The notes under the pieces: model-generated
Told to the model about the DNA's origin: nothing
Database searches by the model: none
Seen by the model: the letters and a program-made list of their open reading frames with translations, nothing else
Part shown: piece after piece, positions 2,203-15,902 of the stretch
Layout: each line of letters opens with the position of its first letter
How positions within the stretch are numbered: the stretch's first letter is position 1
Assembly: GCA_023229365.1 (NCBI GenBank)
Contig: JALNZK010000002.1
Span: 318,343-340,072 of the forward strand
From: Pseudomonadota bacterium
Lineage (GTDB): Bacteria; Myxococcota_A; Polyangia; JAAYKL01
Direction of reading: 5' to 3'
DNA: 21,730 bases
Translations under genes and position numbers: made by a program

Positions 2203-2577
2203 TTATACAGTGTGATGTAAATCTAATCCCCAACCTGTATTCACGACTATCCACTCAACCACATCACCCGGTGTCTCGGCATAGACAACGAATGAAGTAA
2301 AGTGACTAGACGTATCACTCTTGGTGGTCAGACTAGCATTATGTGTAGCAGCCCCTGCACCCCTTGCAGTTAATATAACTGCATAACTAGCAGCAGCCAA
2401 TGGTAGAGCGTCTGGAAAAGTCACTGTAGCTAAACCAGTTCCACCATCAGTTGTTACTATACCAGCAGCTACGATGTGCGGGCTATTTTGCGGAACATTA
2501 AAATTACGATTATTACCTGGACCTTTTAAATTGGAGGCAACGCCTTGTCCAACACCTGTTACACTTGCAGCACCCAT
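2203..2577 (-). CDS. Small Gly/Ala/Val/Thr-rich protein, paralog B (124 aa); possibly structural
   Basis: About two-thirds identical by eye to the upstream neighbour. Shared N-terminus MGA(A/S)SVTGVGQGVA.NLKGPGNNR and shared C-terminus TGWG(L/I)DLHHTV. A terminator follows. Confidence 0.75.
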   Translation of the reverse strand: MGAASVTGVGQGVASNLKGPGNNRNFNVPQNSPHIVAAGIVTTDGGTGLATVTFPDALPLAAASYAVILTARGAGAATHNASLTTKSDTSSHFTSFVVYAETPGDVVEWIVVNTGWGLDLHHTV

Positions 2578-2620
2578 TATATTTTTTCCTTTTTGTTAGT
2601 TTGAGTAATTTATTGGCATA

Positions 2621-2989
2621 TTACACAGTGTGATGTAAATCAATGCCCCAACCTGTACGAATAACGACCCAATCGATCTCGTCAGTTGCACCCTCTGAGT
2701 AAATTGTGAAATAATCAAACTTACTAGAAGTGTCATGTTTAGTGACTACACTTGCATTGTGAGTAGCAGCCCCGGCCCCAAGAGCCGTTACTAAAACAAC
2801 ATAATTCGCAGCAGCCAAATCCAGAGCATCTGGAAAAGTAACTGTCAATGAATTAGCCGCAGCCGTTCCAACGCCAGCAGCTACAACATGCGGGCAAACC
2901 TGTGGAACACAAAAACTACGATTATTACCTGGGCCTTTTAAATTGGCGGCAACGCCTTGTCCAACACCTGTTACACTTGATGCACCCAT
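2621..2989 (-). CDS. Small Gly/Ala/Val/Thr-rich protein, paralog A (122 aa); possibly structural
   Basis: Strong SD (aaggagaataaaATG on the minus strand). Tandem paralog of 2203..2577. Confidence 0.75.
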   Translation of the reverse strand: MGASSVTGVGQGVAANLKGPGNNRSFCVPQVCPHVVAAGVGTAAANSLTVTFPDALDLAAANYVVLVTALGAGAATHNASVVTKHDTSSKFDYFTIYSEGATDEIDWVVIRTGWGIDLHHTV

Positions 2990-3101: not shown

Positions 3102-3635
3102 ATGGAACCAACAAAACGAGAATATCAGGTTATTTTGGGCACTATTATGGGCGGCTCATCAATCATCCGGCCTAAAAAGGGAAAGCATTGTTATTTGTCC
3201 ATGCGAGACAAAAGAGCCAATTGGCTAGAGTTCAAAGCAGATCAATTAGCTCGATACGCCTCGCCAGAGCCTTTTACGATTGAAAAAACAAATCGTTGGC
3301 ACTCTTTGGCATATCCTATTTTCGATGAATTTAGAGAAAAGTTTTATAATCACAAAAAACGTTGTGTCGATATCGAAAGCCTTACTTTCTGGGACGTGGG
3401 ATTGTCTATTTGGTTTGGAGATGTGGGCAAGTTCGAAAATGGACAAGTTATATTAAACACTCACATCTGGGGCGAAAAAGGATCAGAAACCCTGGCAAAA
3501 TATTTCGAATATTGTCAATGGCCTGCTGAAATATTTAAAGACCGCACCTATTACCGTTTACGATTGAACAGAGAGGCTTCTGTGCATTTTATGAATACGG
3601 TTAGCCCTCATTTGCCATTCCCATTGACTCAATAA
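3102..3635 (+). CDS. LAGLIDADG-family homing endonuclease (free-standing; first catalytic motif degenerate)
   Basis: Two LAGLIDADG-like motifs: ILGTIMGGSSI and LSIWFGDVGKF. Family-typical surrounding pattern: CYLSMRDKRANWLEFKADQL, FREKFYNHKKR, ILNTH, YYRLRLNREAS. Confidence 0.75.
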   Translation: MEPTKREYQVILGTIMGGSSIIRPKKGKHCYLSMRDKRANWLEFKADQLARYASPEPFTIEKTNRWHSLAYPIFDEFREKFYNHKKRCVDIESLTFWDVGLSIWFGDVGKFENGQVILNTHIWGEKGSETLAKYFEYCQWPAEIFKDRTYYRLRLNREASVHFMNTVSPHLPFPLTQ

Positions 3636-3671: not shown

Positions 3672-3956
3672 ATGATTAAATTTTTAAAACTAATTACCGG
3701 CGAAGACACATTGGCAGAAGTTACAGAAGAAACCGAATTGCATTATGTTTTAAAGAACCCAATGCGATTTATACCCACCGAACAGGGCATAGGTATAGCC
3801 CCCTTCGCAATGTTTGTGAAAAAGGGCTCTACAATCACAATTGATAAAGATAAGGTTATTTTTGCCGCCGATCCAGAAGATGAAATAGCCAATGTTTATA
3901 ATGAAAAATATGGCTCTGGGATCGTTGTGCCACCCTCAAGCATACAATTACCATGA
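3672..3956 (+). CDS. Hypothetical protein (94 aa)
   Basis: Strong SD (tggaggattacaaATG). The stop overlaps the next start (ATGA). Confidence 0.6.
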   Translation: MIKFLKLITGEDTLAEVTEETELHYVLKNPMRFIPTEQGIGIAPFAMFVKKGSTITIDKDKVIFAADPEDEIANVYNEKYGSGIVVPPSSIQLP

Positions 3957-4543
3957 CAATGCCACATTTAATGAATTGCCCACATTCACCTGATGGGTGG
4001 TGCCTTGATTGCGTCAGTAAACAAGGCAAGCTTTTGCTTGAAATTGACCAAGCCATACAAGACCCGGATAAATTTCTGGCGATGGTTGCTAATCGTGGCC
4101 GACCATTAATCGGCGTTTGCGTTTGCATTTGTCGTCGTGAACCATCCAGCGGCAAAGTTCTTTTGCACAAAAGAAAAGGAAAGCACGCTCCTGGCACATG
4201 GGCATTCCCTGGCGGGCATATGGAAAAATGGGAATCCTTTGAAGGAGTTGTTCGTAGAGAACTAGAAGAAGAAGCAGGGCCAGATATAGAAATTGATAAT
4301 TTGCAATTTTGGACTGTTGCCAATACTCGATTTCATGATGAAGACAAGCATTATGTTGTTCTTTTTATTATGGCTGATTGGGTATCTGGCGAGCCAAAGA
4401 TTATGGAGCCAGAAAAATGTGAATGCTGGGAATGGTTTGATTGGAATGATCTTCCTTCACCACTGATGATGGGGATACAAGATATTGTTGATCGTAAACT
4501 GAGCCCTTTTGACTATGGAGGCGAACACGAAACATTATGCTAG
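3953..4543 (+). CDS. Nudix hydrolase with a Cys-rich N-terminal extension
   Basis: Nudix box GGHMEKWESFEGVVRRELEEEAG (GX5EX7REUXEEXGU). N-terminal CPHSPDGWCLDC cluster. Confidence 0.9.
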   Translation: MTMPHLMNCPHSPDGWCLDCVSKQGKLLLEIDQAIQDPDKFLAMVANRGRPLIGVCVCICRREPSSGKVLLHKRKGKHAPGTWAFPGGHMEKWESFEGVVRRELEEEAGPDIEIDNLQFWTVANTRFHDEDKHYVVLFIMADWVSGEPKIMEPEKCECWEWFDWNDLPSPLMMGIQDIVDRKLSPFDYGGEHETLC

Positions 4544-5109
4544 AAGTAGAAGCTAAATTCATTGTGGATAGTTTTGATTTATTGGAAGCCAAATACCAAT
4601 TTGATGGCCCCGTGTTACAAAGAGATATATATTATCAGCATCCCTCTCGTGATTTTATGAAAACTGGAGAGTGGTTCCGTGTGCGAAGAATTTTTAAGGG
4701 CATTCCCTGTGCGGAAAACCTCGGGTGCGAAGAAATTCATCTGTGTCACAAAGGATCAAATCAAGGCTCATCTGATGTTAAAAGTCGCAGAGAGATAGAA
4801 TTTTCTGTGCCTATGGACATAATTGAACTTTTGCAAATCCTTGATTTTGCAGAATTGATACGAGTGGAAAAATACCGCCGATCAGCCGTGGTTACACCAA
4901 CTAACGATAGTGGCGAACCCACCTTTACCATAACATTAGATGAAGTTTTGGGATTGGGAAAATATGTAGAAATTGAAATGCTGGTTCTCAAAGAAGAATT
5001 TAAAGCAGGAGCAATTGAAGCCATTAATGACATAGCCAAAAAACTGGGACTCACCCAGCCAGAGAAACACGGATATGCTAAATTAATGCTGAAAAAAGAG
5101 AAAAAATGA
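4537..5109 (+). CDS. CYTH-domain protein (triphosphate tunnel metalloenzyme / CyaB-ThTPase family)
   Basis: N-terminal MLEVEAKF carries the ExExK signature. Length and basic/acidic strand pattern fit CYTH. Overlaps its neighbours by 7 nt and 4 nt. Confidence 0.8.
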   Translation: MLEVEAKFIVDSFDLLEAKYQFDGPVLQRDIYYQHPSRDFMKTGEWFRVRRIFKGIPCAENLGCEEIHLCHKGSNQGSSDVKSRREIEFSVPMDIIELLQILDFAELIRVEKYRRSAVVTPTNDSGEPTFTITLDEVLGLGKYVEIEMLVLKEEFKAGAIEAINDIAKKLGLTQPEKHGYAKLMLKKEKK

Positions 5110-5851: not shown

Positions 5852-5887
5852 AAAAAAAGGCAGGGATTTTTCAATCCCTGCCTTTTT
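5852..5887. terminator. Bidirectional rho-independent terminator
   Basis: 10-bp stem ggcagggatt(5859-5868)/aatccctgcc(5873-5882), flanked by A7 upstream and T5 downstream. It sits between convergent gene blocks. Confidence 0.75.
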
Positions 5888-5900
5888 AGCTTTTCCAGAA

Positions 5901-6422
5901 CTATCTATTTCGGAATTGCTGACACCAGAAGATTACTCCGCTGGCAGTACGAAAAGCCGCCACACCAATGCGTAGATGACCTGGGTTGAGAATGTTCGCC
6001 CTGTGACCTGACGAATTCATCCAACAATTGACCACATCACTACTGTGCGGTTGTCCCATTGCAATGTTTTCAGCAAGTGGGAGCCTCGTATGCACCATTG
6101 CCTGATTGCGAGTCATCCAGGCAGCGTGCCCTCTGGCGGTCTGCATCAAATCCTTGTCAACCTCGAAAGGCGGAAGACCATATCGTGCCCGCTCTTCGTT
6201 GGTGAATTTAATGATGTTGGCTTCAATTTCGGCAAGCTTCACACCATCAACCACCACTACTTTATCCGCAGCAGTCGGATAATTTGTTATTGCTTCCACT
6301 TCAGTGGTCTGTGCCGTCGTTGGGGCATTATAACTCTGCTGGCGACGACCTCTGCCTCTGGCTTCTGCCACTGAACAAACACACAACACAACAACAAACG
6401 CAAACAATAGATTCAACCTCAT
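5901..6422 (-). CDS. Secreted CAP/SCP/PR-1-like (YkwD-type) protein
   Basis: Signal peptide MRLNLLFAFVVVLCVCSVAEA. CAP-domain motifs NEERARYGLPP, HAAWM, NSSGHRANILNPG. Strong SD (aaggagtatcgtATG). Confidence 0.85.
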   Translation of the reverse strand: MRLNLLFAFVVVLCVCSVAEARGRGRRQQSYNAPTTAQTTEVEAITNYPTAADKVVVVDGVKLAEIEANIIKFTNEERARYGLPPFEVDKDLMQTARGHAAWMTRNQAMVHTRLPLAENIAMGQPHSSDVVNCWMNSSGHRANILNPGHLRIGVAAFRTASGVIFWCQQFRNR

Positions 6423-6484: not shown

Positions 6485-7219
6485 TTAGCTATCGGTTTTG
6501 TGCAATGCATCGTATTCCGCCGATGTTGCTCGCAGAACGGCCCTGTTGTGAACTTCATCGGCATCACAAGAAGCAGAGGTTCTCGATTCGTAATCGGCAT
6601 AGGCTTTGCTTCCAGCCGCCGCAAAAGCCATAGCTTCCATCGTTCTTGCCGATTTGCCGCCTGTGAACTCATTCAACAGCATTAGTTTGGTATCGGCAGC
6701 TTGAGCCACATTAGCCCAGAATTTGCTTCCGCTATTCAGGCATTGCAACGGGAAAACACGGACACCCATTTCTTTGAGGGCAGCCAATTCTTGTCTCCAA
6801 TTCAGCTTGCCTTCATTCTGCGGATAATTAACATCGTGGGGATCAGCATCACCAATCATGACGAAAGCCGCCGCCACACCGGGGGTCCAACCCAAATCCC
6901 TGGCTTCGTGCAAAACCAATTCATAACATTCATCGCAATCGCCACCCGATGTGTCAGGTGCATTGCGAATAAAGTCGAAGATTTTTGCACGATCATTCGT
7001 GAGCTTTAGCACACGGATGCAGTTTTGTCCATCGCAATAATCCCCGTGAGAAATAAATGCCATTTTCAAGCCGGGAATATTTGCAAATAAACCCTCACAG
7101 GTTTCTTCCAGATGTTTGCGAACATCAGCGATACACGGTCGCATGGAACCTGTGGTGTCAAAACTTATGCCAATTTCCGTAGCGTCATCAATTCTTTCGC
7201 CAAGTGTTTGTTCCGCCAT
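6485..7219 (-). CDS. von Willebrand factor A (vWA) domain protein, last gene of the JAB-E1 cassette
   Basis: MIDAS-like DxTxS (ISFDTTGSM), later TSGG and MIGDADPHD. Start moved to the internal ATG at 7219 (MAEQTL...), which has an SD (aagaggaaaaaATG) and avoids overlap with the E1 gene ending at 7233. Confidence 0.8.
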   Translation of the reverse strand: MAEQTLGERIDDATEIGISFDTTGSMRPCIADVRKHLEETCEGLFANIPGLKMAFISHGDYCDGQNCIRVLKLTNDRAKIFDFIRNAPDTSGGDCDECYELVLHEARDLGWTPGVAAAFVMIGDADPHDVNYPQNEGKLNWRQELAALKEMGVRVFPLQCLNSGSKFWANVAQAADTKLMLLNEFTGGKSARTMEAMAFAAAGSKAYADYESRTSASCDADEVHNRAVLRATSAEYDALHKTDS

Positions 7220-7232
7220 TTTTTCCTCTTTT

Positions 7233-7877
7233 CTAGTGCATTGCACTAATGTGTAAGTCACGCAGGGTAATGGACCATGATTGATGCCGTGGCGATGATG
7301 CCAAGAAGAAATCAAGGATTTCCTCTGAGGCTGCCGCTACTGTCAACATGATGATGTTACGAGCCAAGGGATAGTCGCAAACGTCGCCACCGCTGTCCTT
7401 TGGCACCTTGTAGCGATCATCCCATACAACCTCGCCATAATCTTCAAATAATCCAGTGTGCAGACATGGAATCTTCTTTGCCCGGCAATGGGTTTGAACA
7501 ATTTGCCGTGCAGCATTATTATCAAAACAATCCAACACCAATGCTGAGCCACGCAGCATTTTATCCACGGTAGCGGCGGTCAATTCCTTGTCCACGGTGT
7601 CAATTTCAACACCAATGTTGCCAAACACCTTCTGTTTGGCGGCGGCAACTTTCAAAGCTCCAACATCCCGCTCATTCCAAAACTGGGTGTTTAGATTATG
7701 AGTATCGACACGATCTTTGTCAATACCACGGAGATTGGCAAATCCTTGTCGAGAAAGATTGTCAAGCAAATTGCTACCCAGGGCTCCTACACCACAAATG
7801 GTGATTAGACCTTGCAATTTCTTGGCATAATCCTTGCCTCGGTAAATTTCTTCATGATGGAATTTATTCGTTGCCAT
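7233..7877 (-). CDS. ThiF/MoeB/E1-like adenylyltransferase (short, 214 aa)
   Basis: Rossmann Gly loop ICGVGALGSNL. GIDKDRVDTHNLNTQ (compare the ThiF/E1 D.D.V..SNL.RQ pattern). LDCFDNNAARQ. Cys in GGDVCDYP. SD ggaggaagaaaATG. Confidence 0.88.
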   Translation of the reverse strand: MATNKFHHEEIYRGKDYAKKLQGLITICGVGALGSNLLDNLSRQGFANLRGIDKDRVDTHNLNTQFWNERDVGALKVAAAKQKVFGNIGVEIDTVDKELTAATVDKMLRGSALVLDCFDNNAARQIVQTHCRAKKIPCLHTGLFEDYGEVVWDDRYKVPKDSGGDVCDYPLARNIIMLTVAAASEEILDFFLASSPRHQSWSITLRDLHISAMH

Positions 7878-8025
7878 TTTCTTCCTCCACTATTTCGTAA
7901 ACTGTGCCCCAAATCTTATCATGTGGATCGTAACGCATTTGTATATGATTGAAACTGCAATTGTCGGGATTTGGTCGAAATTCAAGCCATGCTTCAAATT
8001 CTGGTATGTAATTTGCCCGCAGCAT
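7864..8025 (-). CDS. Candidate small ORF (53 aa) between the JAB and E1 genes
   Basis: Manual translation: MLRANYIPEFEAWLEFRPNPDNCSFNHIQMRYDPHDKIWGTVYEIVEEENGNE. Overlaps the E1 start by 14 nt. More protein-like than the competing 78-aa frame 7890..8126, which overlaps the JAB 3' end. Neither frame is proven. Confidence 0.3.
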   Translation of the reverse strand: MLRANYIPEFEAWLEFRPNPDNCSFNHIQMRYDPHDKIWGTVYEIVEEENGNE

Positions 8026-8097
8026 AAATATCCAGCAACCCAAATATCTCTATATTTCACCAAATACTGATATTTGGTTTTACCAGTTGTTTTTATT

Positions 8098-8661
8098 TCA
8101 CTTGGGTTTGTCTGTTTCAATTTCATTCGCCACCTCTTCGCTCTCTAGGAGAGCACCCAAATTAATTGCAGAGTCTTGATCCCAATCAATGGCATGCCCC
8201 CCAAGCTCAACCTCTTCATCAAATAATGTCAAGTCATCCTCCACAACGACATTAGGTGTTGCCAAGCCATAGCAAGCCAGTGGCTTTTTGGGTGTAATTC
8301 CTACAATTAGTTGCCCAAAGCTCTTTAGAGTACGAATGGGAATTGGAGGTTGTTCATCGCTGTAATACAAATAACCCTTGAGCCCATTGACTCCTTCGAT
8401 CAAACAAACGAGAGGCTTGCCAAACGACAACACCCACTGTGCCATTGTAGCATCATCCCGTGGGCTTGGGGAGGCGATCATTCCGGGGTGCGTGTGATAA
8501 AACCCAACCACATCCCCATATTTTTCTTCACGATCCATGACCCACTTATATGGAAAATCCACGGAGCCAGGGTGCCCTTCGCTTTCGTGCGAAACATGAC
8601 CCCACCACATTCTCCTGTGATTTCCGCCCGTCAAAATCCACGATTGTTCATTTTGTCTCAT
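8098..8661 (-). CDS. JAB/MPN (JAMM) metalloisopeptidase
   Basis: Complete JAMM motif HTHPGMIASPSPRD (HxHx7Sx2D) with upstream acidic residues. The ATG directly abuts the upstream stop (TAAATG). Confidence 0.9.
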   Translation of the reverse strand: MRQNEQSWILTGGNHRRMWWGHVSHESEGHPGSVDFPYKWVMDREEKYGDVVGFYHTHPGMIASPSPRDDATMAQWVLSFGKPLVCLIEGVNGLKGYLYYSDEQPPIPIRTLKSFGQLIVGITPKKPLACYGLATPNVVVEDDLTLFDEEVELGGHAIDWDQDSAINLGALLESEEVANEIETDKPK

Positions 8662-9177
8662 TTATTTTTCCCTTAGTCGTTTTATTGCTTCTTGACGTTG
8701 TTCTCGGGTTTGTTCTTCTAGTTCTTGAGTAAACAATTTCCCGCTCATGTAATATTCTGTACCCCAAGCTGGGCACATTTTGTGTAATTCAGGACGACCA
8801 CAACCAGGGCACACACAATCTTTTGACTCTTCTATGTCCCAGTCCATTGACTCTACAATTTCTTTCACATTCTCTTCGATAAATTTCTCACAAGCCTCTG
8901 GACCAATAGCTTCTCGCAATGCAGCAAACGGATTGCCTGTCGCTGCCCAGCGTGCCTCTTCTTCTTCCCAACACTCGTTTTGTCCACACTCTTTAACCTG
9001 ATCCCACAACAAAGCAACGGATGGGTGTTTGTCTTCTTCCCAATCACCACGTTCCAAAAATGCACAATAGCCGTCTTCTTGTTCAGCGTGGTCGGGGTGC
9101 TTGCTCCAATAAGGGCAAATGCCATTTGTATCATAGCAATATATTCCCTTCGGAATTAAACTCGGGTCTTTATTCAT
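8662..9177 (-). CDS. Cys/Trp/Glu-rich hypothetical protein (171 aa), probable metal-binding
   Basis: Start set at the ATG at 9177 (MNKDPS...), which forms an ATGA overlap with the GIY-YIG stop. Cys clusters: YCYDTNGICPYW...GYCAF and CVCPGCG...MCPAWG. Confidence 0.6.
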   Translation of the reverse strand: MNKDPSLIPKGIYCYDTNGICPYWSKHPDHAEQEDGYCAFLERGDWEEDKHPSVALLWDQVKECGQNECWEEEEARWAATGNPFAALREAIGPEACEKFIEENVKEIVESMDWDIEESKDCVCPGCGRPELHKMCPAWGTEYYMSGKLFTQELEEQTREQRQEAIKRLREK

Positions 9178-9893
9178 AATGTTTTCTTTTCCAACACTTT
9201 CCAATTTTTGTAATGTGCGATTTTGCCAGCAGCTACACTCCACATATGCCCAGAATTCAAATTGTGTTCCCTTGAAAACTGCTCCAAATTACTTGTCTCG
9301 AATACTTCTCCATCTGGCGATGCTATTTTGTATGCGAATTTCAATTTTTTGTTTCGCATTTTTTCTTTTGACTTATCCGAATACTTTCTTCCTGTGGCTG
9401 ATTTGGCAATTTTGTTTTTGTGTTCCTCTGTAAGCGTTTTGCCAGTGTTAAATAGCGATAACTTCTTTTTTGTTTTATTGCTTACTTTGTGTCCTAAATG
9501 ACTCGATCTAAGCTTTTTAATTGTTGCTTGGGTTACTTTTTTCCCTTTGTTGCCGATGGATATTTTGCGTTTAACCTCCTCAGATATTACGCCTCGGGCA
9601 TTTCCAAGTTTTAAATTATAACCATTTGGAGAAAGGGTTTTTAATTCACAGCCCCAATACACTTCCCTGGCATCTATTTCTTCTTGTGTGCCATTTAATT
9701 TTTCTAACACCACAATCTTAAAATGTTCTGGTCCGTATTTTCGAATGGCAAGGACAATCGGCATTAGTTTGGTGTTATTCCACCTTGCCTCCGCACAGTG
9801 TCTTTTGAACCTTTCTTCTGCCGTTTTCCAAGTTTGCCCAACATAGACCTTTGCATTAAGATCATTTATTATTTTGTATATAATTGCTTCCAT
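9174..9893 (-). CDS. GIY-YIG homing endonuclease (I-TevI/Seg-like) with NUMOD3-type repeats
   Basis: IIYKIINDLNAKVYVGQT (GIY...YIG), R/H/E core, NGYN. C-terminal repeated S.GNKGKK / SSHLGHKVS / NTGKTLTEEHKNKI DNA-binding motifs. Confidence 0.9.
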   Translation of the reverse strand: MEAIIYKIINDLNAKVYVGQTWKTAEERFKRHCAEARWNNTKLMPIVLAIRKYGPEHFKIVVLEKLNGTQEEIDAREVYWGCELKTLSPNGYNLKLGNARGVISEEVKRKISIGNKGKKVTQATIKKLRSSHLGHKVSNKTKKKLSLFNTGKTLTEEHKNKIAKSATGRKYSDKSKEKMRNKKLKFAYKIASPDGEVFETSNLEQFSREHNLNSGHMWSVAAGKIAHYKNWKVLEKKTL

Positions 9894-9945
9894 ACAATTA
9901 TATAGTAGCTTTCTAATTTATTTGCCCACTAATTTCCTTCTTTTC

Positions 9946-10401
9946 TTATAATTTGTCAAATTGGTCTCTGATCTTCATTAGAAGTTTTCCAAGATGGTTT
10001 TCCCCAACTCCGTTGCATACCCCAAAAAACGTGTCGTGCCACCAATTTCCTTCTACTAATTCCGCCTTGCCAGTGGCAAGAAGCTGATTGCATAATTGTG
10101 GATCGGAGAATTTTTGCACAAGCAAATCTTCCATAATCCCTAAATTAATATTTTGCCAATCGGGTCGTTGGTGTCCAGCTTTTTTGAATACAGCCGCAAG
10201 CTTCTTTGCTTTTCCAGGGGTAATAGCGTCTTGAATTTGCTTACGCAATGCCGGGTCTAAAAATTTAGCAGCTTGGTAAGCGTGTTCGGTGGAAATATAT
10301 TTTTCACCATCCAAAACTACCGGCGTGGACAGTATGGCAAAATTCGACAAATACCTGTATTCACCATCAAATGAATCAATTTTTGTTTGCTTGTCATTCA
10401 T
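9946..10401 (-). CDS. NADAR (YbiA/DUF1768) domain protein
   Basis: FDGEYRYLSNF, YISTEHAYQAAKF, GNWWHDTFFG and GENHLGKLLMKIR match the NADAR signature. Confidence 0.88.
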   Translation of the reverse strand: MNDKQTKIDSFDGEYRYLSNFAILSTPVVLDGEKYISTEHAYQAAKFLDPALRKQIQDAITPGKAKKLAAVFKKAGHQRPDWQNINLGIMEDLLVQKFSDPQLCNQLLATGKAELVEGNWWHDTFFGVCNGVGENHLGKLLMKIRDQFDKL

Positions 10402-10634
10402 TTTTTCTTTTCTTTCTTTTCAAGCTTTTTCAATGAATGTGCCAAATCCATTGAATTTGTTACTTTTCTCACTCCCTTTTTAAATTGTTTCAATTCTTCA
10501 CGCAACCGAATCACTTCTGCCTCCATGACCTGTGCTTTGCAACCATAGTCATACAAAACACCAGCGGTTGGCTCTGCCTTATTGACAGCATTCCAAAACT
10601 TGCGGGAGGCATTTCCAGAAAATATTTTTTTCAT
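10398..10634 (-). CDS. Hypothetical coiled-coil protein (~78 aa)
   Basis: Start placed at the ATG at 10634 (TAATG coupling to the upstream stop) rather than 10649. Lys-rich C-terminus. Confidence 0.5.
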   Translation of the reverse strand: MKKIFSGNASRKFWNAVNKAEPTAGVLYDYGCKAQVMEAEVIRLREELKQFKKGVRKVTNSMDLAHSLKKLEKKEKKK

Positions 10635-11122
10635 TACATTTCTGTCCACGATTTCAAAGGTGGTGCTACCAACATCTTTACAAACATCATGATTGTTCCG
10701 TAGACCACATCATCCTTGGTGAAATTAAATCTTTTCATTGCCTCATCATTCACCCATTCCATCAAGGAAGTGGCCCTTTCCTCGGAACGGGTCTTCCAAT
10801 CACACACCAACTCGGCAAGATAAATGCGGGGCATTCCTTTAATTCCGCCATCCCAATATTCTGGGTGGTGTTTATTCGTATGATTGTGCTGCATAATAGC
10901 GAGTTTCAAGGCAGCCTTATCTGGATTCTCTATTGATAAATGATCCCATTCAGCACCAAAAAACTTGCTATTATCGTGAAGAAAAGAATTTGCCACCAGC
11001 GTTTTGGCAAGCTTAAACTCTCCATTCTCCATCAGTCTTTCAGCAAGAATTACGCAATTCTCCTGAACACCGTGAATGTGCCGCATCAGTTTTTGAATAC
11101 GATCAATATCACGCTGACTCAT
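10634..11122 (-). CDS. HD-motif protein (putative metal-dependent phosphohydrolase-like; resembles phage DUF5662-type proteins from memory)
   Basis: H...HD pattern (HIHGV...FLHDNSKF), HNHTNKHHPEYW, AELVCDW. Start at 11122 preferred (ATGA coupling with the upstream 50-aa ORF); 11170 is the alternative. Confidence 0.5.
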   Translation of the reverse strand: MSQRDIDRIQKLMRHIHGVQENCVILAERLMENGEFKLAKTLVANSFLHDNSKFFGAEWDHLSIENPDKAALKLAIMQHNHTNKHHPEYWDGGIKGMPRIYLAELVCDWKTRSEERATSLMEWVNDEAMKRFNFTKDDVVYGTIMMFVKMLVAPPLKSWTEM

Positions 11123-11271
11123 TTCTTTTCTTGCTCCTTTTGCTTCTGTTCGATAATATAATTTCGACACCTTTCCAGTGCTTGATAATAAAGCAATTGG
11201 GAAAGTGGATCAACAGTATCTTGCAGACCTTTTGCACAAGCCAATTCGTGATTGTATTCTATTTCAGTCAT
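11119..11271 (-). CDS. Possible small ORF (50 aa)
   Basis: Manual translation: MTEIEYNHELACAKGLQDTVDPLSQLLYYQALERCRNYIIEQKQKEQEKK. It fills the gap between 11278 and 11122 with an ATGA overlap. Confidence 0.35.
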   Translation of the reverse strand: MTEIEYNHELACAKGLQDTVDPLSQLLYYQALERCRNYIIEQKQKEQEKK

Positions 11272-11277
11272 GATTTA

Positions 11278-12225
11278 CTAATCGTCGTCGTCGTCGTCGT
11301 AATCGTGCTCTGGCTCGTTGCCACGATTATGGCCGTATTGATTCCAATACCACGTATCACGACCAGAGGTATCTACAATATGGTCACGGCGGTGTCCCTC
11401 TCGGATAACACCTACTAGACTTTGAAGATCAAAGTTACGGTCATAGCCCGACAAACAAATACCAGCAGAAATTACTGATAAAGTTTTTTTGTCAACAACT
11501 GAACGATGAGGGTTTCCATCGATTTGATATTCAATAGTGAAACTGTCTCCACGCTCAATGTGGCTTTTATAATCAGCACCAGCACGCTCTAGGGCAACTT
11601 TGATACGATTGCCTGCCTGTGCCATCTTGGCTTCTTCGCTGGCTTCATAGGCGACCTTATAAGCGATTTGGTATGCATCCAATTCTTGCTTGGAAACAAT
11701 ATCCAAATCCAGCTTCTCTGGCTTGGCCAATGTAGTCAACATTTCTCGCAAATATGCTCCGCTTTTCGGACTTTTGCGAGGGTCTACTTCATCAAACCAA
11801 CAAATCTGTCCATCGAAACGAGCACAAACAGTATCAAACAATTGCACTTCCTCAGACAAATAAATCGGCACGGACCCAGAAATGTTAAATCTGGCATCTG
11901 CCTGAGCAAGGGTTCCATACCACAAATCTTTATTTTGATGGTGCAAAATAAATTTCATAGTAGGAAACAATGCCAAGTATTGTCTTCGCTCCATCATGGA
12001 CGGGGCACGCACATGTTTGGCCAAACGACGGGTGGTAGGCTTGAAAACACCCCAACCCTGAAAATTCACAGGCACTACACGCATTTCCATCACAATGCCA
12101 GAAATACGAACTCTGACCGCTCGCCCCTTGAGCACAGGGGACAAAAACTCTGATTGAAGGAATTGATCTTCCTCAGCGGCGAGCTTATCGATCAGACTGT
12201 GAATATTCGTTTTCTTTTTTTTCAT
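11278..12225 (-). CDS. Hypothetical protein (315 aa) with a C-terminal hexa-Asp tail
   Basis: Start set at the ATG at 12225 (MKKKKTNIHS), directly after the upstream stop (TAACATG). Ends ...EHDYDDDDDD. No motif recognised. Confidence 0.7.
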   Translation of the reverse strand: MKKKKTNIHSLIDKLAAEEDQFLQSEFLSPVLKGRAVRVRISGIVMEMRVVPVNFQGWGVFKPTTRRLAKHVRAPSMMERRQYLALFPTMKFILHHQNKDLWYGTLAQADARFNISGSVPIYLSEEVQLFDTVCARFDGQICWFDEVDPRKSPKSGAYLREMLTTLAKPEKLDLDIVSKQELDAYQIAYKVAYEASEEAKMAQAGNRIKVALERAGADYKSHIERGDSFTIEYQIDGNPHRSVVDKKTLSVISAGICLSGYDRNFDLQSLVGVIREGHRRDHIVDTSGRDTWYWNQYGHNRGNEPEHDYDDDDDD

Positions 12226-12226
12226 G

Positions 12227-12610
12227 TTATTCGATAGCTTCTGTCTGCCCGCTGCCGTTTTTTCCTGCGTCCCAGCCCGCTCCATTGATTTCTTTGGGTG
12301 AATGCAGATGAATTGTCATCGTTAAATAGTAACTTGTGGCAATAGTTCCTTCCATCCACACTTTTTCATTTTCCCTGACATCAAAAACAAATTTTACATT
12401 GTCTGCACACACCGGGTAAGTGTGCATTTTCCCATTAATTAGGAAGGAATATCGGGATGGCTCATGCATCAAAACACGGTCAATGTTTTTTAATTTGCTA
12501 TAATGCGGCTCAGGAGAGCATCCGGCAAGGAGCAAAACAAAAAATAAAAACCATTTCAAATGAATTAACCAGGACATTTTCTGAAATCTCCGTAAGAACA
12601 TTCTCCGCAC
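12227..12610 (-). CDS. Putative lipoprotein
   Basis: Hydrophobic signal followed by the lipobox LLLAGC|S (WFLFFVLLLAGCSPE). The start is ambiguous (12610 or 12577). Confidence 0.7.
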   Translation of the reverse strand: MRRMFLRRFQKMSWLIHLKWFLFFVLLLAGCSPEPHYSKLKNIDRVLMHEPSRYSFLINGKMHTYPVCADNVKFVFDVRENEKVWMEGTIATSYYLTMTIHLHSPKEINGAGWDAGKNGSGQTEAIE

Positions 12611-12816
12611 AATGCTGTTTCGCTTTCACCCCACAATTGCCAGTAGCAAGAGGCACAAACACCCCAGTGATCGCTCCACCGCACCACTCTGTCCCCTAAA
12701 TCCCAGTATGCCGAGCCGCTTTTAGAAACAAAATGAGGTTTCTCATCTGGTATCTTGCAAACTGTAAAATTGGCAACTGTTGCTTTATAAAAATTCCACC
12801 AACCAAATCTCAACAA
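12565..12816 (-). CDS. Hypothetical Trp/Cys-rich protein (83 aa), non-ATG (TTG) start
   Basis: The frame has no in-frame ATG; TTG at 12816 is preceded by the purine-rich aagaaagagaaaaa. Contains CASCYW...CGEC Cys pairs. Confidence 0.45.
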   Translation of the reverse strand: MLRFGWWNFYKATVANFTVCKIPDEKPHFVSKSGSAYWDLGDRVVRWSDHWGVCASCYWQLWGESETALCGECSYGDFRKCPG

Positions 12817-13038
12817 TTTTTCTCTTTCTTGTCCATCTAAATTTCTTTCCCGCCAACCTCTTTATCCGACCTGCATCAATGTAAGACTGTGATAAGTAGA
12901 CATTGGGGCTTTCAATTCGGGGCTATCGCCCTTCCACCCTGTTCACGACCGCTTTAACTCAGTATAGCGATTTCAACATTGCTACTTATTATTTTGTACC
13001 CTTTCACGGATTTTTGTTTCTGCACAGTCTCTATAACC

Positions 13039-13066
13039 ATTATACTCCAGAAACGCATCTTGTAAA
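13039..13066 (-). promoter_or_regulatory. Sigma70-like promoter (TTTACA-N16-TATAAT) reading leftward
   Basis: Minus strand: tttaca(13066-13061)-16 nt-tataat(13044-13039). It shares extended similarity (..ctg[ga]agTATAAT) with the promoters at 15090 and 16797. Confidence 0.55.
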
Positions 13067-13097
13067 TAAGAAAAGCCCTGGGGACAATCCCCAGGGC
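13066..13097 (-). terminator. Rho-independent terminator after the Ro60-like gene
   Basis: 10-bp stem gccctgggga(13075-13084)/tccccagggc(13088-13097), 3-nt loop, then ttttcttattt on the minus strand. It lies 26 nt past the stop at 13123. Confidence 0.7.
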
Positions 13098-13122
13098 TTC
13101 CCAGACAAGTTCGCAAAGCTCA

Positions 13123-14691
13123 CTACGCAACTTTTCTCTTCGGCAAAGGCCAACTCATGATTTCCATGAGCAAGTCAAGCTTACTGGGCTTGCACAGGAA
13201 TTTCACCAGTCCAGGCAAGCTGTAGTAGTCGCCGGTAAATTGCCAAGCGTCTACTTCGATGCCTTTGACTCGACCTTCTTGCTCCAATTGATCCGTAGCA
13301 TTAGGAGTCTTGACAATGCAAATGTTGGGGAATGCATTCAAGGCTTGACAGTATTTTTGATAAATGTCAAAGAACTTGGGAGCAGTATTTTCCCCTTCAT
13401 CCGTTACCAAAATGATCTGTTCGACCATGTATTTCTTTTGTAGCATAAACTGCAAGCCAACGCCGCAGGAAGTCCAACCGCTTGCACGGATGCCTTCAAA
13501 TGCTTTCTCCCAAGCTGCCAAGTCTTTTCCTTGGCTAGTGATGGGATAGGCGATTGTATCTTGAGCATACGCATACAAAGGAACACCATCCTCCATAACC
13601 GTAGACAATAGGGAGCCAATTCGCTTGCCCAATTCAATGGTAGCGGCTTGAGAACCCGACTTGTCCACAAACAAAGCCGTGGGGCGACTGATACGACCCT
13701 TGGACTTAATTTGTTGGTCAGCAACGGCTTCCAATTGTTGCTTTACTTCATCCGAAACTCCAGGTGCCGCCTTGACGGCTTCCAAGGATTTCAATGCAGC
13801 CATTCGCTTATCGCCCTTGGCCACAACAAGTTTTTCCTCAATCAATTGCTTGAGATCGGGGTTGTCGAACACGCCACGCTTTTTCAAGCTGCCGATGCTG
13901 TTGACCAACTCTTGCGAAGTCATTACTTCCAACAAAGCCGCAATAACAGGCGGTGTCATGGATTCGATTACCGTACTGGCAATCCGGTACGGAATTTTAT
14001 TTTCCACGATCACTCGGGCTTGGTCAGTCGGTGAAGTTGCCTTGGCCAACTCCTTGATTAGGAACGCTTTGGAATCAGCAGGCGGCTTATCATCGAACAA
14101 CACGGCTTGAGCCCGGTCGGTCGGCTTGCGGTGTCCGAAAGCATACAAACTCTTCATATATTTTCGAGCACCAACGCAGACACTATCGAACCAATCTTTA
14201 TCCAATTCTCGCTCTTGCAGATAACGATTGATTTCCGTCATTACGGAATTGGGCAATTGTCGGAACAAGCCCGTTTTGACTTTCTTGGCAGGAGCAGCCG
14301 GTTGTGCCGGTGCGGCAGCAACTCTACGACCCCGAACCATGCGTGCGGGTGCCGGTGCGGCAGCCTTCGGCTTTCGTTCGGTGATATAGTTGCCCAAAAT
14401 GAACTTCAATACCCGTGTCAATTGATAGGGCGGAAGCTCACGCAACATGGCCAAACCAACTTCTCGGTGCCCGTCAAACTTGGACAGACACAAAGAAATA
14501 ATAAACATTTCTTTGTGGTCACGAATTTCGCCGGTATCATTATACCAAGCCGCCAATTGCGAATAGAACCGAGGATCATCGGTAATCATTCGCTGGTGTT
14601 CTGGATAAATAGCGGCCAGATCACGGTGAGGCGTGGTCAATAGAGTGTTGAGAATTCGGAGTCGCACATCTTGTTCGGTATTTTCGTTCAT
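13123..14691 (-). CDS. Ro60/Rsr-like protein: helical-repeat (TROVE-like) N-terminal region plus C-terminal vWA domain (522 aa)
   Basis: C-terminal vWA with MIDAS FVDKSGSQ (DxSxS), ASGWTSCG and ILVTDEGEN, in the same order as human Ro60 VDVSASM / GGTDCS / IVFTDNET (recalled). The N-terminal helical segments RDHKEMFIISLCLS and REVGLAMLRELPPYQLTRVLKFI parallel Ro60 KQEPMLFALAICSQ and [24 protein letters not shown]. Total length is close to Ro60 (~540 aa). Start moved to 14691 (MNENTEQ, SD aaagggatatgaaATG) because the ATG at 14727 lies inside a structured RNA element. Ala/Pro/Arg-rich insert KPKAAAPAPARMVRGRRVAAAPAQPAAPAKK. Confidence 0.65.
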   Translation of the reverse strand: MNENTEQDVRLRILNTLLTTPHRDLAAIYPEHQRMITDDPRFYSQLAAWYNDTGEIRDHKEMFIISLCLSKFDGHREVGLAMLRELPPYQLTRVLKFILGNYITERKPKAAAPAPARMVRGRRVAAAPAQPAAPAKKVKTGLFRQLPNSVMTEINRYLQERELDKDWFDSVCVGARKYMKSLYAFGHRKPTDRAQAVLFDDKPPADSKAFLIKELAKATSPTDQARVIVENKIPYRIASTVIESMTPPVIAALLEVMTSQELVNSIGSLKKRGVFDNPDLKQLIEEKLVVAKGDKRMAALKSLEAVKAAPGVSDEVKQQLEAVADQQIKSKGRISRPTALFVDKSGSQAATIELGKRIGSLLSTVMEDGVPLYAYAQDTIAYPITSQGKDLAAWEKAFEGIRASGWTSCGVGLQFMLQKKYMVEQIILVTDEGENTAPKFFDIYQKYCQALNAFPNICIVKTPNATDQLEQEGRVKGIEVDAWQFTGDYYSLPGLVKFLCKPSKLDLLMEIMSWPLPKRKVA

Positions 14692-14716
14692 TTCATATCC
14701 CTTTCTAAATAAAAAT

Positions 14717-14797
14717 AGCCCATCCAAGTCTGGTCAGCTTTGATTGGAAACGATATGGAAGTTTCTGTTTGTAAGCTGGGCCGGTATGGGATGGGCT
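14717..14797 (-). ncRNA. Y-RNA-like module 0 (minimal: conserved stem motif closed by a ~35-nt insert, no tRNA-like domain)
   Basis: 9-bp terminal stem agcccatcc/ggatgggct. Carries both conserved strands (minus sense 5' ..CCCAUACC..CAGCUUACAAACAG and 3' GCUGACCAGACUUGGAUGGG). Followed on the minus strand by AUUUUUAUUU. Confidence 0.55.
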
Positions 14798-15127: not shown

Positions 15128-15253
15128 TCCGTCCAAGTTACAAAAACTGTTTTTGGTAAACAATGCAGGAATTGAACCAGCATTCTTCAGTTTTCAAGAC
15201 TGACGCTCAACCATTGAGCTAATTGTTTGTAAGTTTTAGTGGTATGGGACGGA
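15128..15253 (-). ncRNA. Y-RNA-like module 1: conserved stem motif flanking a complete tRNA
   Basis: Terminal stem tccgtcc(15128-15134)/ggacgga(15247-15253). The conserved 5' and 3' motif strands bracket the tRNA at 15154-15228. Confidence 0.6.
15154..15228 (-). tRNA. tRNA or tRNA-like, anticodon UGA, class I (short variable arm), CCA encoded
   Basis: Minus sense: AAACAAT-TA-GCTC-AATGGTT-GAGC-G-TCAGT-CTTGAAA-ACTGA-AGAAT-GCTGG-TTCAATT-CCTGC-ATTGTTT-A-CCA. U8, A14, G18G19, U33 and the T-loop TTCAA are present. One T-stem mismatch. A Ser-type anticodon without the long variable arm is anomalous. Confidence 0.55.
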
Positions 15254-15743: not shown

Positions 15744-15902
15744 CATAAGGCAAACATTTGATCGTCCAAGTCGAAGAAACTGTTTTTTGCAACAATGTTG
15801 GATTCGCACCAACTACCGAAACTTTATGGAAGTTTTGCTCTACTGATGAGCTAATTGTTTGTAAGTTCCGTCAGTATGGGACGATCAAATGTTTGCCTTA
15901 TG
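15744..15902 (-). ncRNA. Y-RNA-like module 5: 24-bp perfect terminal stem plus conserved motif flanking a degenerate tRNA-like domain (CAU loop)
   Basis: cataaggcaaacatttgatcgtcc(15744-15767) is the exact reverse complement of 15879-15902. The inner tRNA-like domain (15789-15860) has a D-loop ATCAGTA lacking GG, anticodon loop UCCAUAA (C33) and T-loop TGCGAAT. Confidence 0.6.

Follow-up and report, generated by a model that had tools for sequence, protein, structure and literature searches.

We analysed a 21,730-nucleotide stretch of DNA (contig JALNZK010000002.1 of assembly GCA_023229365.1, positions 318,343 to 340,072), called the window below, and find that it encodes a 151-residue protein of the NADAR family, whose catalytic residues are intact and which is homologous to the NADAR of phage Bas32. 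What this protein does, in its activity, substrate and role alike, we infer from such comparisons: we consider it probable, though not strongly so, that it would undo base-linked ADP-ribosylation of nucleic acid and serve as a counter-defence against host transferases. Moreover, a homing endonuclease gene lies between the NADAR gene and a gene for a cysteine-rich protein, at a point where the two are joined in one open reading frame (ORF) in endonuclease-free relatives. The same operon encodes, upstream of the NADAR, a protein of the Pfam family DUF5662 with HD motifs.

Identity of the NADAR protein

Residues 14-148 of the protein match positions 9-162 of the 163 in Pfam profile PF08719 (E-value 1.3e-22; 81.2 bits against a cut-off of 35.1), and the match to phrog_1017 has an E-value of 2.7e-38. 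Two solved structures are recovered as well, those of E. coli YbiA (2b3w; E-value 1.8e-15 with the single sequence and 1.7e-34 with the family profile) and of the NADAR of P. nicotianae, PnNADAR (8bau; 2.5e-3 and 7e-18). Family membership is thus secure at the level of sequence and profile, which bears out an earlier interpretation, made from the letters alone and here termed the sequence-only reading, that had described a full NADAR. That reading had also named a loss of catalytic residues as the finding that would speak against it. Since E39, K46 and E117 are all present, and are invariant together with R79, W82 and D123 in an alignment of 36 relatives, this objection does not arise. The three residues align with E43, K50 and E125 of PnNADAR, and E39 and K46 correspond to E88 and K95 of the E. 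coli C7 NADAR; the mechanistic roles of these residues were shown or proposed by Schuller et al. (PMC11543638). The third catalytic residue, which lies near the distal ribose, varies between families, from Glu (YbiA and NADAR) to Asp (DarG1) and His (T4-type proteins) (PMC11543638). In the window protein E117 lies in the string LVEGN and aligns with the Glu of LVEHT in YbiA, making it of the Glu, or YbiA-subfamily, type.

Judged by these alignments the protein is a core-only, Glu-type member of a large clade, and its placement among the four published NADAR families is by pairwise and profile scores. The clade comprises 1380 proteins at E-values up to 1e-5, including about 465 phage records, nearly all full-length, and proteins of many bacterial genomes. 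The phage homologues carry annotations as varied as 'swarming motility', 'riboflavin biosynthesis', 'NADAR' and 'antitoxin-like enzyme'. Members of this clade are encoded at least four times on one chromosome, that of a Bryobacterales metagenome-assembled genome (OZ241991.1; loci L211, L216, L218 and L256), in separate copies that have 43-46% identity to the window protein. The same pair of small ORFs flanks each copy, a pattern suggestive of a repeated element, mobile or multi-copy.

Comparison with known NADAR systems

How does the window protein compare with NADARs that have been studied? Over its full length it is 36% identical (E-value 5e-30) to gp038 of the T5-like phage OSYSP, whose gene is 98.9% identical in nucleotides to bas32_0066, the NADAR gene of phage Bas32 (IrisVonRoten). 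Johannesman et al. (PMC11257639) showed by experiment that the Bas32 NADAR neutralises DarT1 and that it rescues phages from DarTG1. Like it, the window protein has about 150 residues, the core fold only, the motif EGNxW-D-x-x-WGVC-G-x-G-x-N and the catalytic Glu/Lys/Glu, and is encoded by a stand-alone phage gene with no transferase partner; the Bas32 protein has orthologues in T5-like Markadamsvirinae. However, the two differ at 64% of positions; 7 residues are inserted in the window protein, and two basic residues for contact with the pyrophosphate are missing from it. The surroundings differ too: thymidylate synthase and RNase H genes in Bas32, DUF5662 and the endonuclease and cysteine-rich genes in the window. 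At 36% identity, sequence comparison does not establish orthology or equivalence of function with the Bas32 protein.

According to the same study, the Bas32 and Bas60 NADARs act generally and neutralise DarT1 even without infection, whereas AdfN (gp30.3) of T4 is specific for phage DNA, namely T-even modified DNA; neutralisation of DarT1, or rescue of plating under DarTG1, has been shown for the Bas32, Bas60 and T4 proteins only (PMC11257639). AdfN resembles the window protein in being a phage-borne, stand-alone member of the NADAR superfamily of about 150 residues, and the role proposed for both is counter-defence against DNA ADP-ribosylation. The third catalytic residue is His in the T4 type (PMC11543638) but Glu in the window protein, and pairwise BLASTP gave no alignment between AdfN and the window protein. 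A T4-type identity was rejected, the match to PF08010 (Phage_30_3) reaching 17.7 bits against a cut-off of 36.

With DarG1, the NADAR antitoxin associated with DarT1 (BC4488 subfamily), the window protein shares the superfamily and, presumably, the chemistry, that is, hydrolysis of guanine-N2-ADP-ribose. It differs in having Glu where DarG1 has its catalytic Asp, in having no DarT1 neighbour, and in lacking the N-terminal beta-beta-alpha DNA-binding extension, the NADAR domain beginning at residue ~8-14. No DarG1 structure was recovered at E-values up to 1, whether with the single sequence or the family profile, from a copy of the PDB whose DarG1 content was not shown, and the PADLOC results included no DarG model. 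Membership of a known defence system was likewise set aside: PADLOC returned a weak PDC-M42C match, and the score with the NCBIfam model DS32_2 ('NADAR family anti-phage protein') was 52.8 bits, far short of its cut-off of 240.

Substrate and role

NADARs hydrolyse guanine-N2-ADP-ribose (PMC11543638). All four families (NADAR, YbiA, T4-type phage and DarG1) remove ADP-ribose from guanine (G-ADPr) on both DNA and RNA, and the YbiA and 'NADAR' families remove it from cytidine (C-ADPr) as well (PMC11125620, PMC11833690, PMC12945103). The window protein would accordingly be an N-glycohydrolase that cleaves the bond between C1'' of ADP-ribose and an exocyclic base nitrogen. Guanine-N2 in DNA or RNA is the main candidate for its substrate, with cytosine a possible second, because the active site is of the Glu type. 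Cleavage would free ADP-ribose and restore the base, and phage nucleic acid would thereby be protected from host transferases of the DarT1-like or pierisin-like kind. Sequence does not by itself decide whether DNA, RNA or a small ADP-ribose derivative is the substrate.

Several observations weigh against such a role. No ADP-ribosyltransferase, DarT or defence partner was found near the NADAR gene or near its viral and bacterial relatives, as judged from the clustered neighbours at 80 viral loci (±8 kb) and 80 bacterial loci, and no window ORF scanned with Pfam, PADLOC and NCBIfam matched DarT1 or another ADP-ribosyltransferase family. Nor is there a conserved NADAR operon in these loci: no neighbour family occurs in more than 7 of the 80 viral ones, and synteny in the bacterial ones depends on the taxon. 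The recurrent neighbour clusters, most of which had no family search, showed no evident transferase partner. E. coli YbiA and the T4 NADAR are active in vitro and yet give no protection against DarT1 in vivo (PMC11125620), so the physiological target cannot be read off from activity on a model substrate. Furthermore, the window protein and its nearest relatives have Ala69/70 and Asn86 in place of R79 and R93, which contact the pyrophosphate in PnNADAR, and a Lys-rich insertion of 6-7 residues (FKKAGHQ) stands beside the altered residues (region 66-90) in this subclade. By alignment, the ligand site of the subclade may have been remodelled, and substrate preference might change with it.

Finally, in the view of Iyer et al. 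the targets of most phage NADARs are small derivatives of ADP-ribose rather than macromolecular adducts (PMC9503650). Applied to the window protein, this view is one that we regard as possible, if rather unlikely. The candidates would be immune signals or toxins derived from NAD+, such as isomers of cyclic ADP-ribose (cADPR) or ADP-ribose 1''-phosphate (ADPr-1''P), or ADP-ribose 1''-2'' cyclic phosphate, a by-product of NAD-dependent RNA repair, and the HD phosphodiesterase together with a nearby NUDIX protein would process the phosphate-containing products. The proposal has been made on genomic context for most phage NADARs (PMC9503650, PMC7824862), and some context in our data agrees with it. 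At 80 viral loci anchored on DUF5662 (±10 kb), the RNA-repair nucleotidyltransferase RlaP is the commonest neighbour (20 of 80). On an 88-kb contig (L004), NadE and NAPRTase flank DUF5662, and PARG lies nearby, as does a NUDIX protein homologous to that of the window (E-value 2e-22), although this context is a single case. Other fusions of the cysteine-rich domain are to HAD_SAK_2 (an HAD domain of RNA repair), DUF4326, a deoxyribosyltransferase-like domain and MazG, and the changed pyrophosphate contacts would also fit. However, the literature examined contained no NADAR that hydrolyses such small molecules, NADARs are inactive on phosphate-linked ADP-ribosylation of RNA (PMC11833690), and all phage NADARs tested acted on G-ADPr in DNA (PMC11257639). 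Family searches of the window revealed no RNA ligase, KptA, RtcB or TIR/Thoeris-related gene.

A YbiA-like part in metabolic damage control, in which the NADAR would be an auxiliary metabolic gene and an N-glycosidase that destroys reactive intermediates of the riboflavin pathway, strikes us as very improbable: YbiA is indeed the best match of solved structure (33% identity, E-value 2e-21, equal core fold length), the Glu that defines its subfamily is present (PMC11543638), the YbiA equivalog model TIGR02464 is matched with an E-value of 1.5e-17 and many phage homologues bear riboflavin or swarming-motility names, but that match scores 64.2 bits, below the cut-off of 73.7, the names are transferred annotations and not tests, rib genes are absent from the window and from the recurrent neighbours, and the Bas32 protein, at 36% identity, has been shown to act against DarT1 (PMC11257639). 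The window protein also departs from YbiA in its active-site loop, VEGNWWHD against VEHT-END, and in lying outside a LexA/dinG-type or rib context. Moreover, YbiA itself, a riboflavin-intermediate N-glycosidase, removes G-ADPr and C-ADPr in vitro (PMC11125620, PMC12945103).

We therefore retain removal of ADP-ribose from nucleic-acid bases as the preferred function. The sequence-only reading had proposed counter-defence against DarTG-like immunity, and this holds up in so far as the Bas32 relative counters DarTG1, but no transferase context was found and the idea is already in print. Phage NADARs are an established counter-defence against DarTG1, and the window gene, as far as homology can tell, is a further example, from an uncultured phage, that adds no new principle.

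A homing endonuclease at the junction of a fused gene

The gene that follows the NADAR gene encodes a GIY-YIG domain (PF01541, E-value 2.6e-8, 34.5 bits against a cut-off of 22.6) and matches the homing endonuclease family phrog_314 (E-value 2e-30); a match to NUMOD3 is weak (17.1 bits, below the Pfam cut-off of 20.4), so that a DNA-binding module of this type is no more than putative. That this endonuclease had been inserted directly downstream of the NADAR, as had been suggested from the letters, is confirmed by comparison with an endonuclease-free locus (L009) whose NADAR is 68% identical to that of the window. There (junction at L009 2140-2190) the homologous NADAR and cysteine-rich blocks are 12 nucleotides apart, against 795 in the window, and the roughly 783 extra nucleotides comprise the last 21 nucleotides of the NADAR gene with its stop codon, a spacer and the endonuclease ORF, whose stop overlaps the start of the cysteine-rich gene. 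The G+C content of the endonuclease ORF is 36.5%, against 40-44% in the flanks. On this comparison the GIY-YIG gene is a mobile insertion of ~783 nucleotides at the junction of the NADAR and the four-cysteine domain described below. The cassette would have landed where endonuclease-free relatives have a single ORF, and would supply both the stop codon of the NADAR and the start codon of the cysteine-rich gene. The direction of the event is unproven: a fused gene may have been split, or the fusion may have followed loss of the endonuclease.

Genes of T4-like phages are known to be split by free-standing GIY-YIG endonucleases, as nrdA is by mobE in Aeromonas phage Aeh1. As there, the cassette in the window sits between two pieces that are fused in relatives without it, and provides a new stop and a new start; it differs in that the direction is unproven. 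We regard the locus as a new and clean example of a homing endonuclease placed where the parts of a fused gene meet.

The four-cysteine domain

The N-terminal ~70 residues of the cysteine-rich protein form a domain with the motif IPxGxYCY..CPYW..GYC..LLWDQVKECG, in which C14, C38 and C64 are invariant in the alignment and C21 nearly so. Neither the protein nor the domain matches a Pfam family, and structure prediction of the domain gave no confident model. In two relatives of the window NADAR, P0002 and P0003 (66-68% identical; 224-226 residues), the NADAR runs straight into a domain of the window type. Fusion of a NADAR to this domain was seen three times in all (P0002, P0003 and P0382), and in one instance the NADAR is of YbiA type, 35% identical to the window protein and 42% to E. 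coli YbiA. The other fusion partners are those named above, the deoxyribosyltransferase-like domain being Nuc_deoxyri_tr2, together with DUF7831. At E-values up to 1e-3 the domain occurs in 871 clusters of a 50%-identity library, mostly as stand-alone proteins of 70-130 residues.

To our mind the new element here is a widespread and unannotated four-cysteine domain that is repeatedly fused to NADARs and to domains that process nucleotides or ADP-ribose. From these fusions, it appears a better candidate for the true partner of the NADAR than DUF5662. A role as a zinc-binding targeting module is speculative, but the domain could explain how core-only NADARs find their substrates. A broader proposal, for which we would give only a small chance, is that the NADAR and the four-cysteine domain are halves of one enzyme split by the endonuclease, that the domain is a new zinc-binding module targeting nucleic acid or a ligand, and that both form, with DUF5662 and a 78-residue protein encoded between DUF5662 and the NADAR, a new phage cassette that removes ADP-ribose adducts or signals in several steps.

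The C-terminus of the cysteine-rich protein (residues ~117-171) carries a second cysteine module (CPGCGRPELHKMCPAWGTEYYMSGKLFT...). Since this module occurs alone in other proteins (P0194, P0274) and is missing from the NADAR fusions, the 171-residue protein is a mosaic of two modules.

The DUF5662 protein and its relation to the NADAR

The protein encoded upstream of the NADAR begins at the ATG at position 11122; an extension to 178 residues from a GTG is supported neither by homologues nor by gene calls. Across 33 homologues H15, H49-D50, K53, E58, H79, H85-H86-P-E, E104, D108-W, R112 and E115 are invariant, and an AlphaFold2 model is all-helical with a mean predicted local distance difference test score (pLDDT) of 94. 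Both the conserved H...HD...D metal-binding residues and the HD fold are thus found, and we take membership of the HD superfamily as established. The seven conserved metal ligands (H/HD/H/HH/D) resemble the set typical of two-metal HD phosphodiesterases. Compared with HD phosphodiesterases of the HD-GYP and PgpH types the protein is only ~10-16% identical, has no more than 162 residues and carries no sensor or partner domains, and in place of the HD-GYP signature HHExxDGxGYP it has HHPEYWDGGIKGMP, with GYP replaced (HHPEYW-GGI-x-MP). No Pfam HD family matches it even at E-values up to 5, and we found no paper on DUF5662.

At the 80 DUF5662-anchored loci the commonest same-strand neighbours after RlaP are EF-Ts (16), GMP reductase (12), DUF1937 (12) and dCMP deaminase (10); a YpsA-like SLOG protein occurs at 9 (25.6 bits, below the Pfam cut-off of 27.7). 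Because these viral neighbours (RlaP, GMP reductase, dCMP deaminase and DUF1937) belong to RNA repair and nucleotide metabolism, the protein would be an independent nucleotide, RNA-end or NAD-related phosphodiesterase, co-transcribed with the NADAR in the lineage of the window but not its obligate partner. What is new is support from comparison for DUF5662 as a phosphodiesterase of large phages that has the HD fold, probably binds two metals and is found in a setting of RNA repair and nucleotide metabolism.

Could the two proteins nonetheless work together? Whatever the substrate of the NADAR, one may ask whether DUF5662, the 78-residue protein, the NADAR and the cysteine-rich protein form one multi-step machine, in which the HD enzyme would either degrade the ADP-ribose set free by the NADAR or act before it, opening a cyclic or pyrophosphate linkage. 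We find this doubtful. The coupling of the four genes is tight at the level of translation, three lineages with 63-99% identity share the order DUF5662 - small protein - NADAR(::Cys), and a NADAR lies within 10 kb at 12 of the 80 DUF5662-anchored loci, always on the same strand. In none of these twelve are the two genes adjacent, however, and in the reverse direction DUF5662 is present at 1 of 80 NADAR-anchored viral loci and at 0 of 80 bacterial ones, with the four-cysteine domain at 0 of 80 viral ones. The huge phage LR756511 carries both genes, but at a distance of 31 kb. If a NADAR is present in roughly every second large phage (a figure based on PMC9503650), the 12 of 80 (15%) within 20 kb would, as a rough estimate, be at most 1.5-3 times the expected share. 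Even in L009, where DUF5662 is ~77% identical to that of the window and the order DUF5662 - small ORF - NADAR is kept, a gene for a predicted coiled-coil protein of 141 residues (L009 1327-1752) has been inserted between the small ORF and the NADAR, so the cassette is plastic even among close relatives. The functional link is therefore weak, and the pairing is lineage-specific, with adjacency in close relatives only. The suggestion of the sequence-only reading that the upstream HD protein acts on a related product fares accordingly; its text had rightly placed this gene upstream of the NADAR, the order being reversed in its heading.

Layout of the locus and phage origin

The ORF list and family searches place all cassette genes on the minus strand (Table 1). 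The three genes of the sequence-only reading lie where it had put them, and two more, for the 78-residue and the cysteine-rich proteins, had escaped it. In order of transcription come a 50-residue ORF (p50), DUF5662, the 78-residue ORF, the NADAR, the 52-nucleotide spacer, the endonuclease and the cysteine-rich protein, followed 3' by JAB, ThiF-like, vWA-like and CAP-domain genes. Stop and start codons overlap between p50 and DUF5662 (ATGA), DUF5662 and the 78-residue ORF (TAATG), the latter and the NADAR (ATGA), and the endonuclease and the cysteine-rich gene (ATGA); the first four genes are therefore translationally coupled. Family searches gave no match for p50, and the 78-residue protein had none in Pfam, PHROG, NCBIfam or PADLOC, although a homologue of 59 residues stands at the equivalent position in L009 (phmmer E-value 1.1e-19).

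Consensus scans, the sole source of our promoter and terminator calls, detected a hairpin with a 15-bp stem and T-run, followed by a promoter-like TTTACA-16-TATAAT (11 of 12 matches), upstream of p50, and a second terminator-like hairpin past the CAP-domain gene. By their sequence, these probably mark the start and the end of the transcription unit that holds the cassette.

Table 1. Features of the window (all coordinates are window positions)
Feature	Position	Strand	Remarks
NADAR, 151 aa (amino acids)	9946..10401	-	Core YbiA-like fold only; PF08719, phrog_1017, PDB 2b3w/8bau
GIY-YIG homing endonuclease, 239 aa	9174..9893	-	Free-standing; PF01541, phrog_314; between NADAR and cysteine-rich genes
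AT-rich spacer, 52 nucleotides	9894..9945	-	27% GC; 5' of endonuclease gene; part of the inserted cassette
Cysteine-rich protein, 171 aa	8662..9177	-	Start overlaps endonuclease stop (ATGA); four-cysteine domain in N-terminal ~70 residues (about 8968-9168)
Second cysteine module	8662..8830	-	C-terminus of the cysteine-rich protein
DUF5662 protein, 162 aa	10634..11122	-	HD-superfamily metal-dependent phosphohydrolase; Pfam DUF5662 E-value 1.6e-20
78-aa conserved small protein	10398..10634	-	Coupled to both neighbours; gene calls in L002 and a 58-kb contig
50-aa ORF (p50)	11119..11271	-	Stop overlaps DUF5662 start (ATGA); gene call in L002
Terminator-like hairpin, then promoter-like site	13039..13102	-	Hairpin 13102-13070; promoter-like 13066-13039; probable start of the unit
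Terminator-like hairpin past CAP-domain gene	5854..5887	-	15-bp stem and T-run; probable end of the unit
JAB/MPN protein	8098..8661	-	Same operon
ThiF/E1-like adenylyltransferase	7233..7877	-	
vWA-like protein	6485..7315	-	Operon continues
Secreted CAP-domain protein	5901..6422	-	Operon continues
534-aa protein	13123..14727	-	Upstream of the operon
tRNA-Ser (TGA)	15154..15228	-	
tRNA-Met (CAT)	15789..15860	-	
LAGLIDADG homing endonuclease	3102..3635	+	
NUDIX protein	3953..4543		
CYTH protein	4537..5109		
Two adjoining ~123-aa paralogues	2203..2989	-	
Collagen-repeat protein, 782 aa	16892..19240		

Identical gene order and gene calls are found on a 12-kb contig, with an identical NADAR, and on a 58-kb contig, whose NADAR is 93% identical; a megablast search with window positions 8000-13000 found no near-identical phage record. 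Because the window holds two homing endonucleases (GIY-YIG and LAGLIDADG), two tRNAs and a collagen-repeat protein of 782 residues, because the closest phage-database relatives of the NADAR and of DUF5662 come from uncultured phage genomes of 462-595 kb, and because contigs in the 0.2-1 Mb class encode an identical NADAR, the window is probably part of a very large phage, likely of more than 200 kb. The best bacterial relatives of the NADAR in GTDB genomes are only 41-55% identical, too distant to indicate a host.

Other genes of the window

Beyond the cysteine-rich gene the operon continues with the JAB/MPN protein and the ThiF/E1-like adenylyltransferase, the latter matching the PADLOC model 'E1-E2' (E-value 5.5e-14) and the NCBIfam model 6A-MBL cap2_3 (6.7e-13), and then with the vWA-like and CAP-domain proteins. 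A phage pair of E1-like and JAB proteins could interfere with host defences that use ubiquitin-like conjugation; nothing links the pair to the NADAR, and we rejected the two as NADAR partners, both being absent 3' of the NADAR::Cys fusion in L010.

Upstream of the operon, the 534-residue protein has a single weak match, to a TROVE protein in the PDB (9l5y/9kop, E-value 0.013), and a TROVE/Ro60 identity, which has no Pfam support, is a weak lead only. The two tRNA genes lie just upstream of it. Ro60-like RNA quality control would fit the RNA-repair flavour of the region, a thin argument. At the other end of the window the LAGLIDADG endonuclease gene stands beside the NUDIX and CYTH genes, whose ends overlap, all three on the plus strand. 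Farther out are the two adjoining paralogues (MGA[A/S]SVTGVGQGV...), one of which weakly matches a tail-fibre gp53-like C-terminal domain (E-value 0.0024); these paralogues and the collagen-repeat protein suggest that structural genes flank the accessory region.

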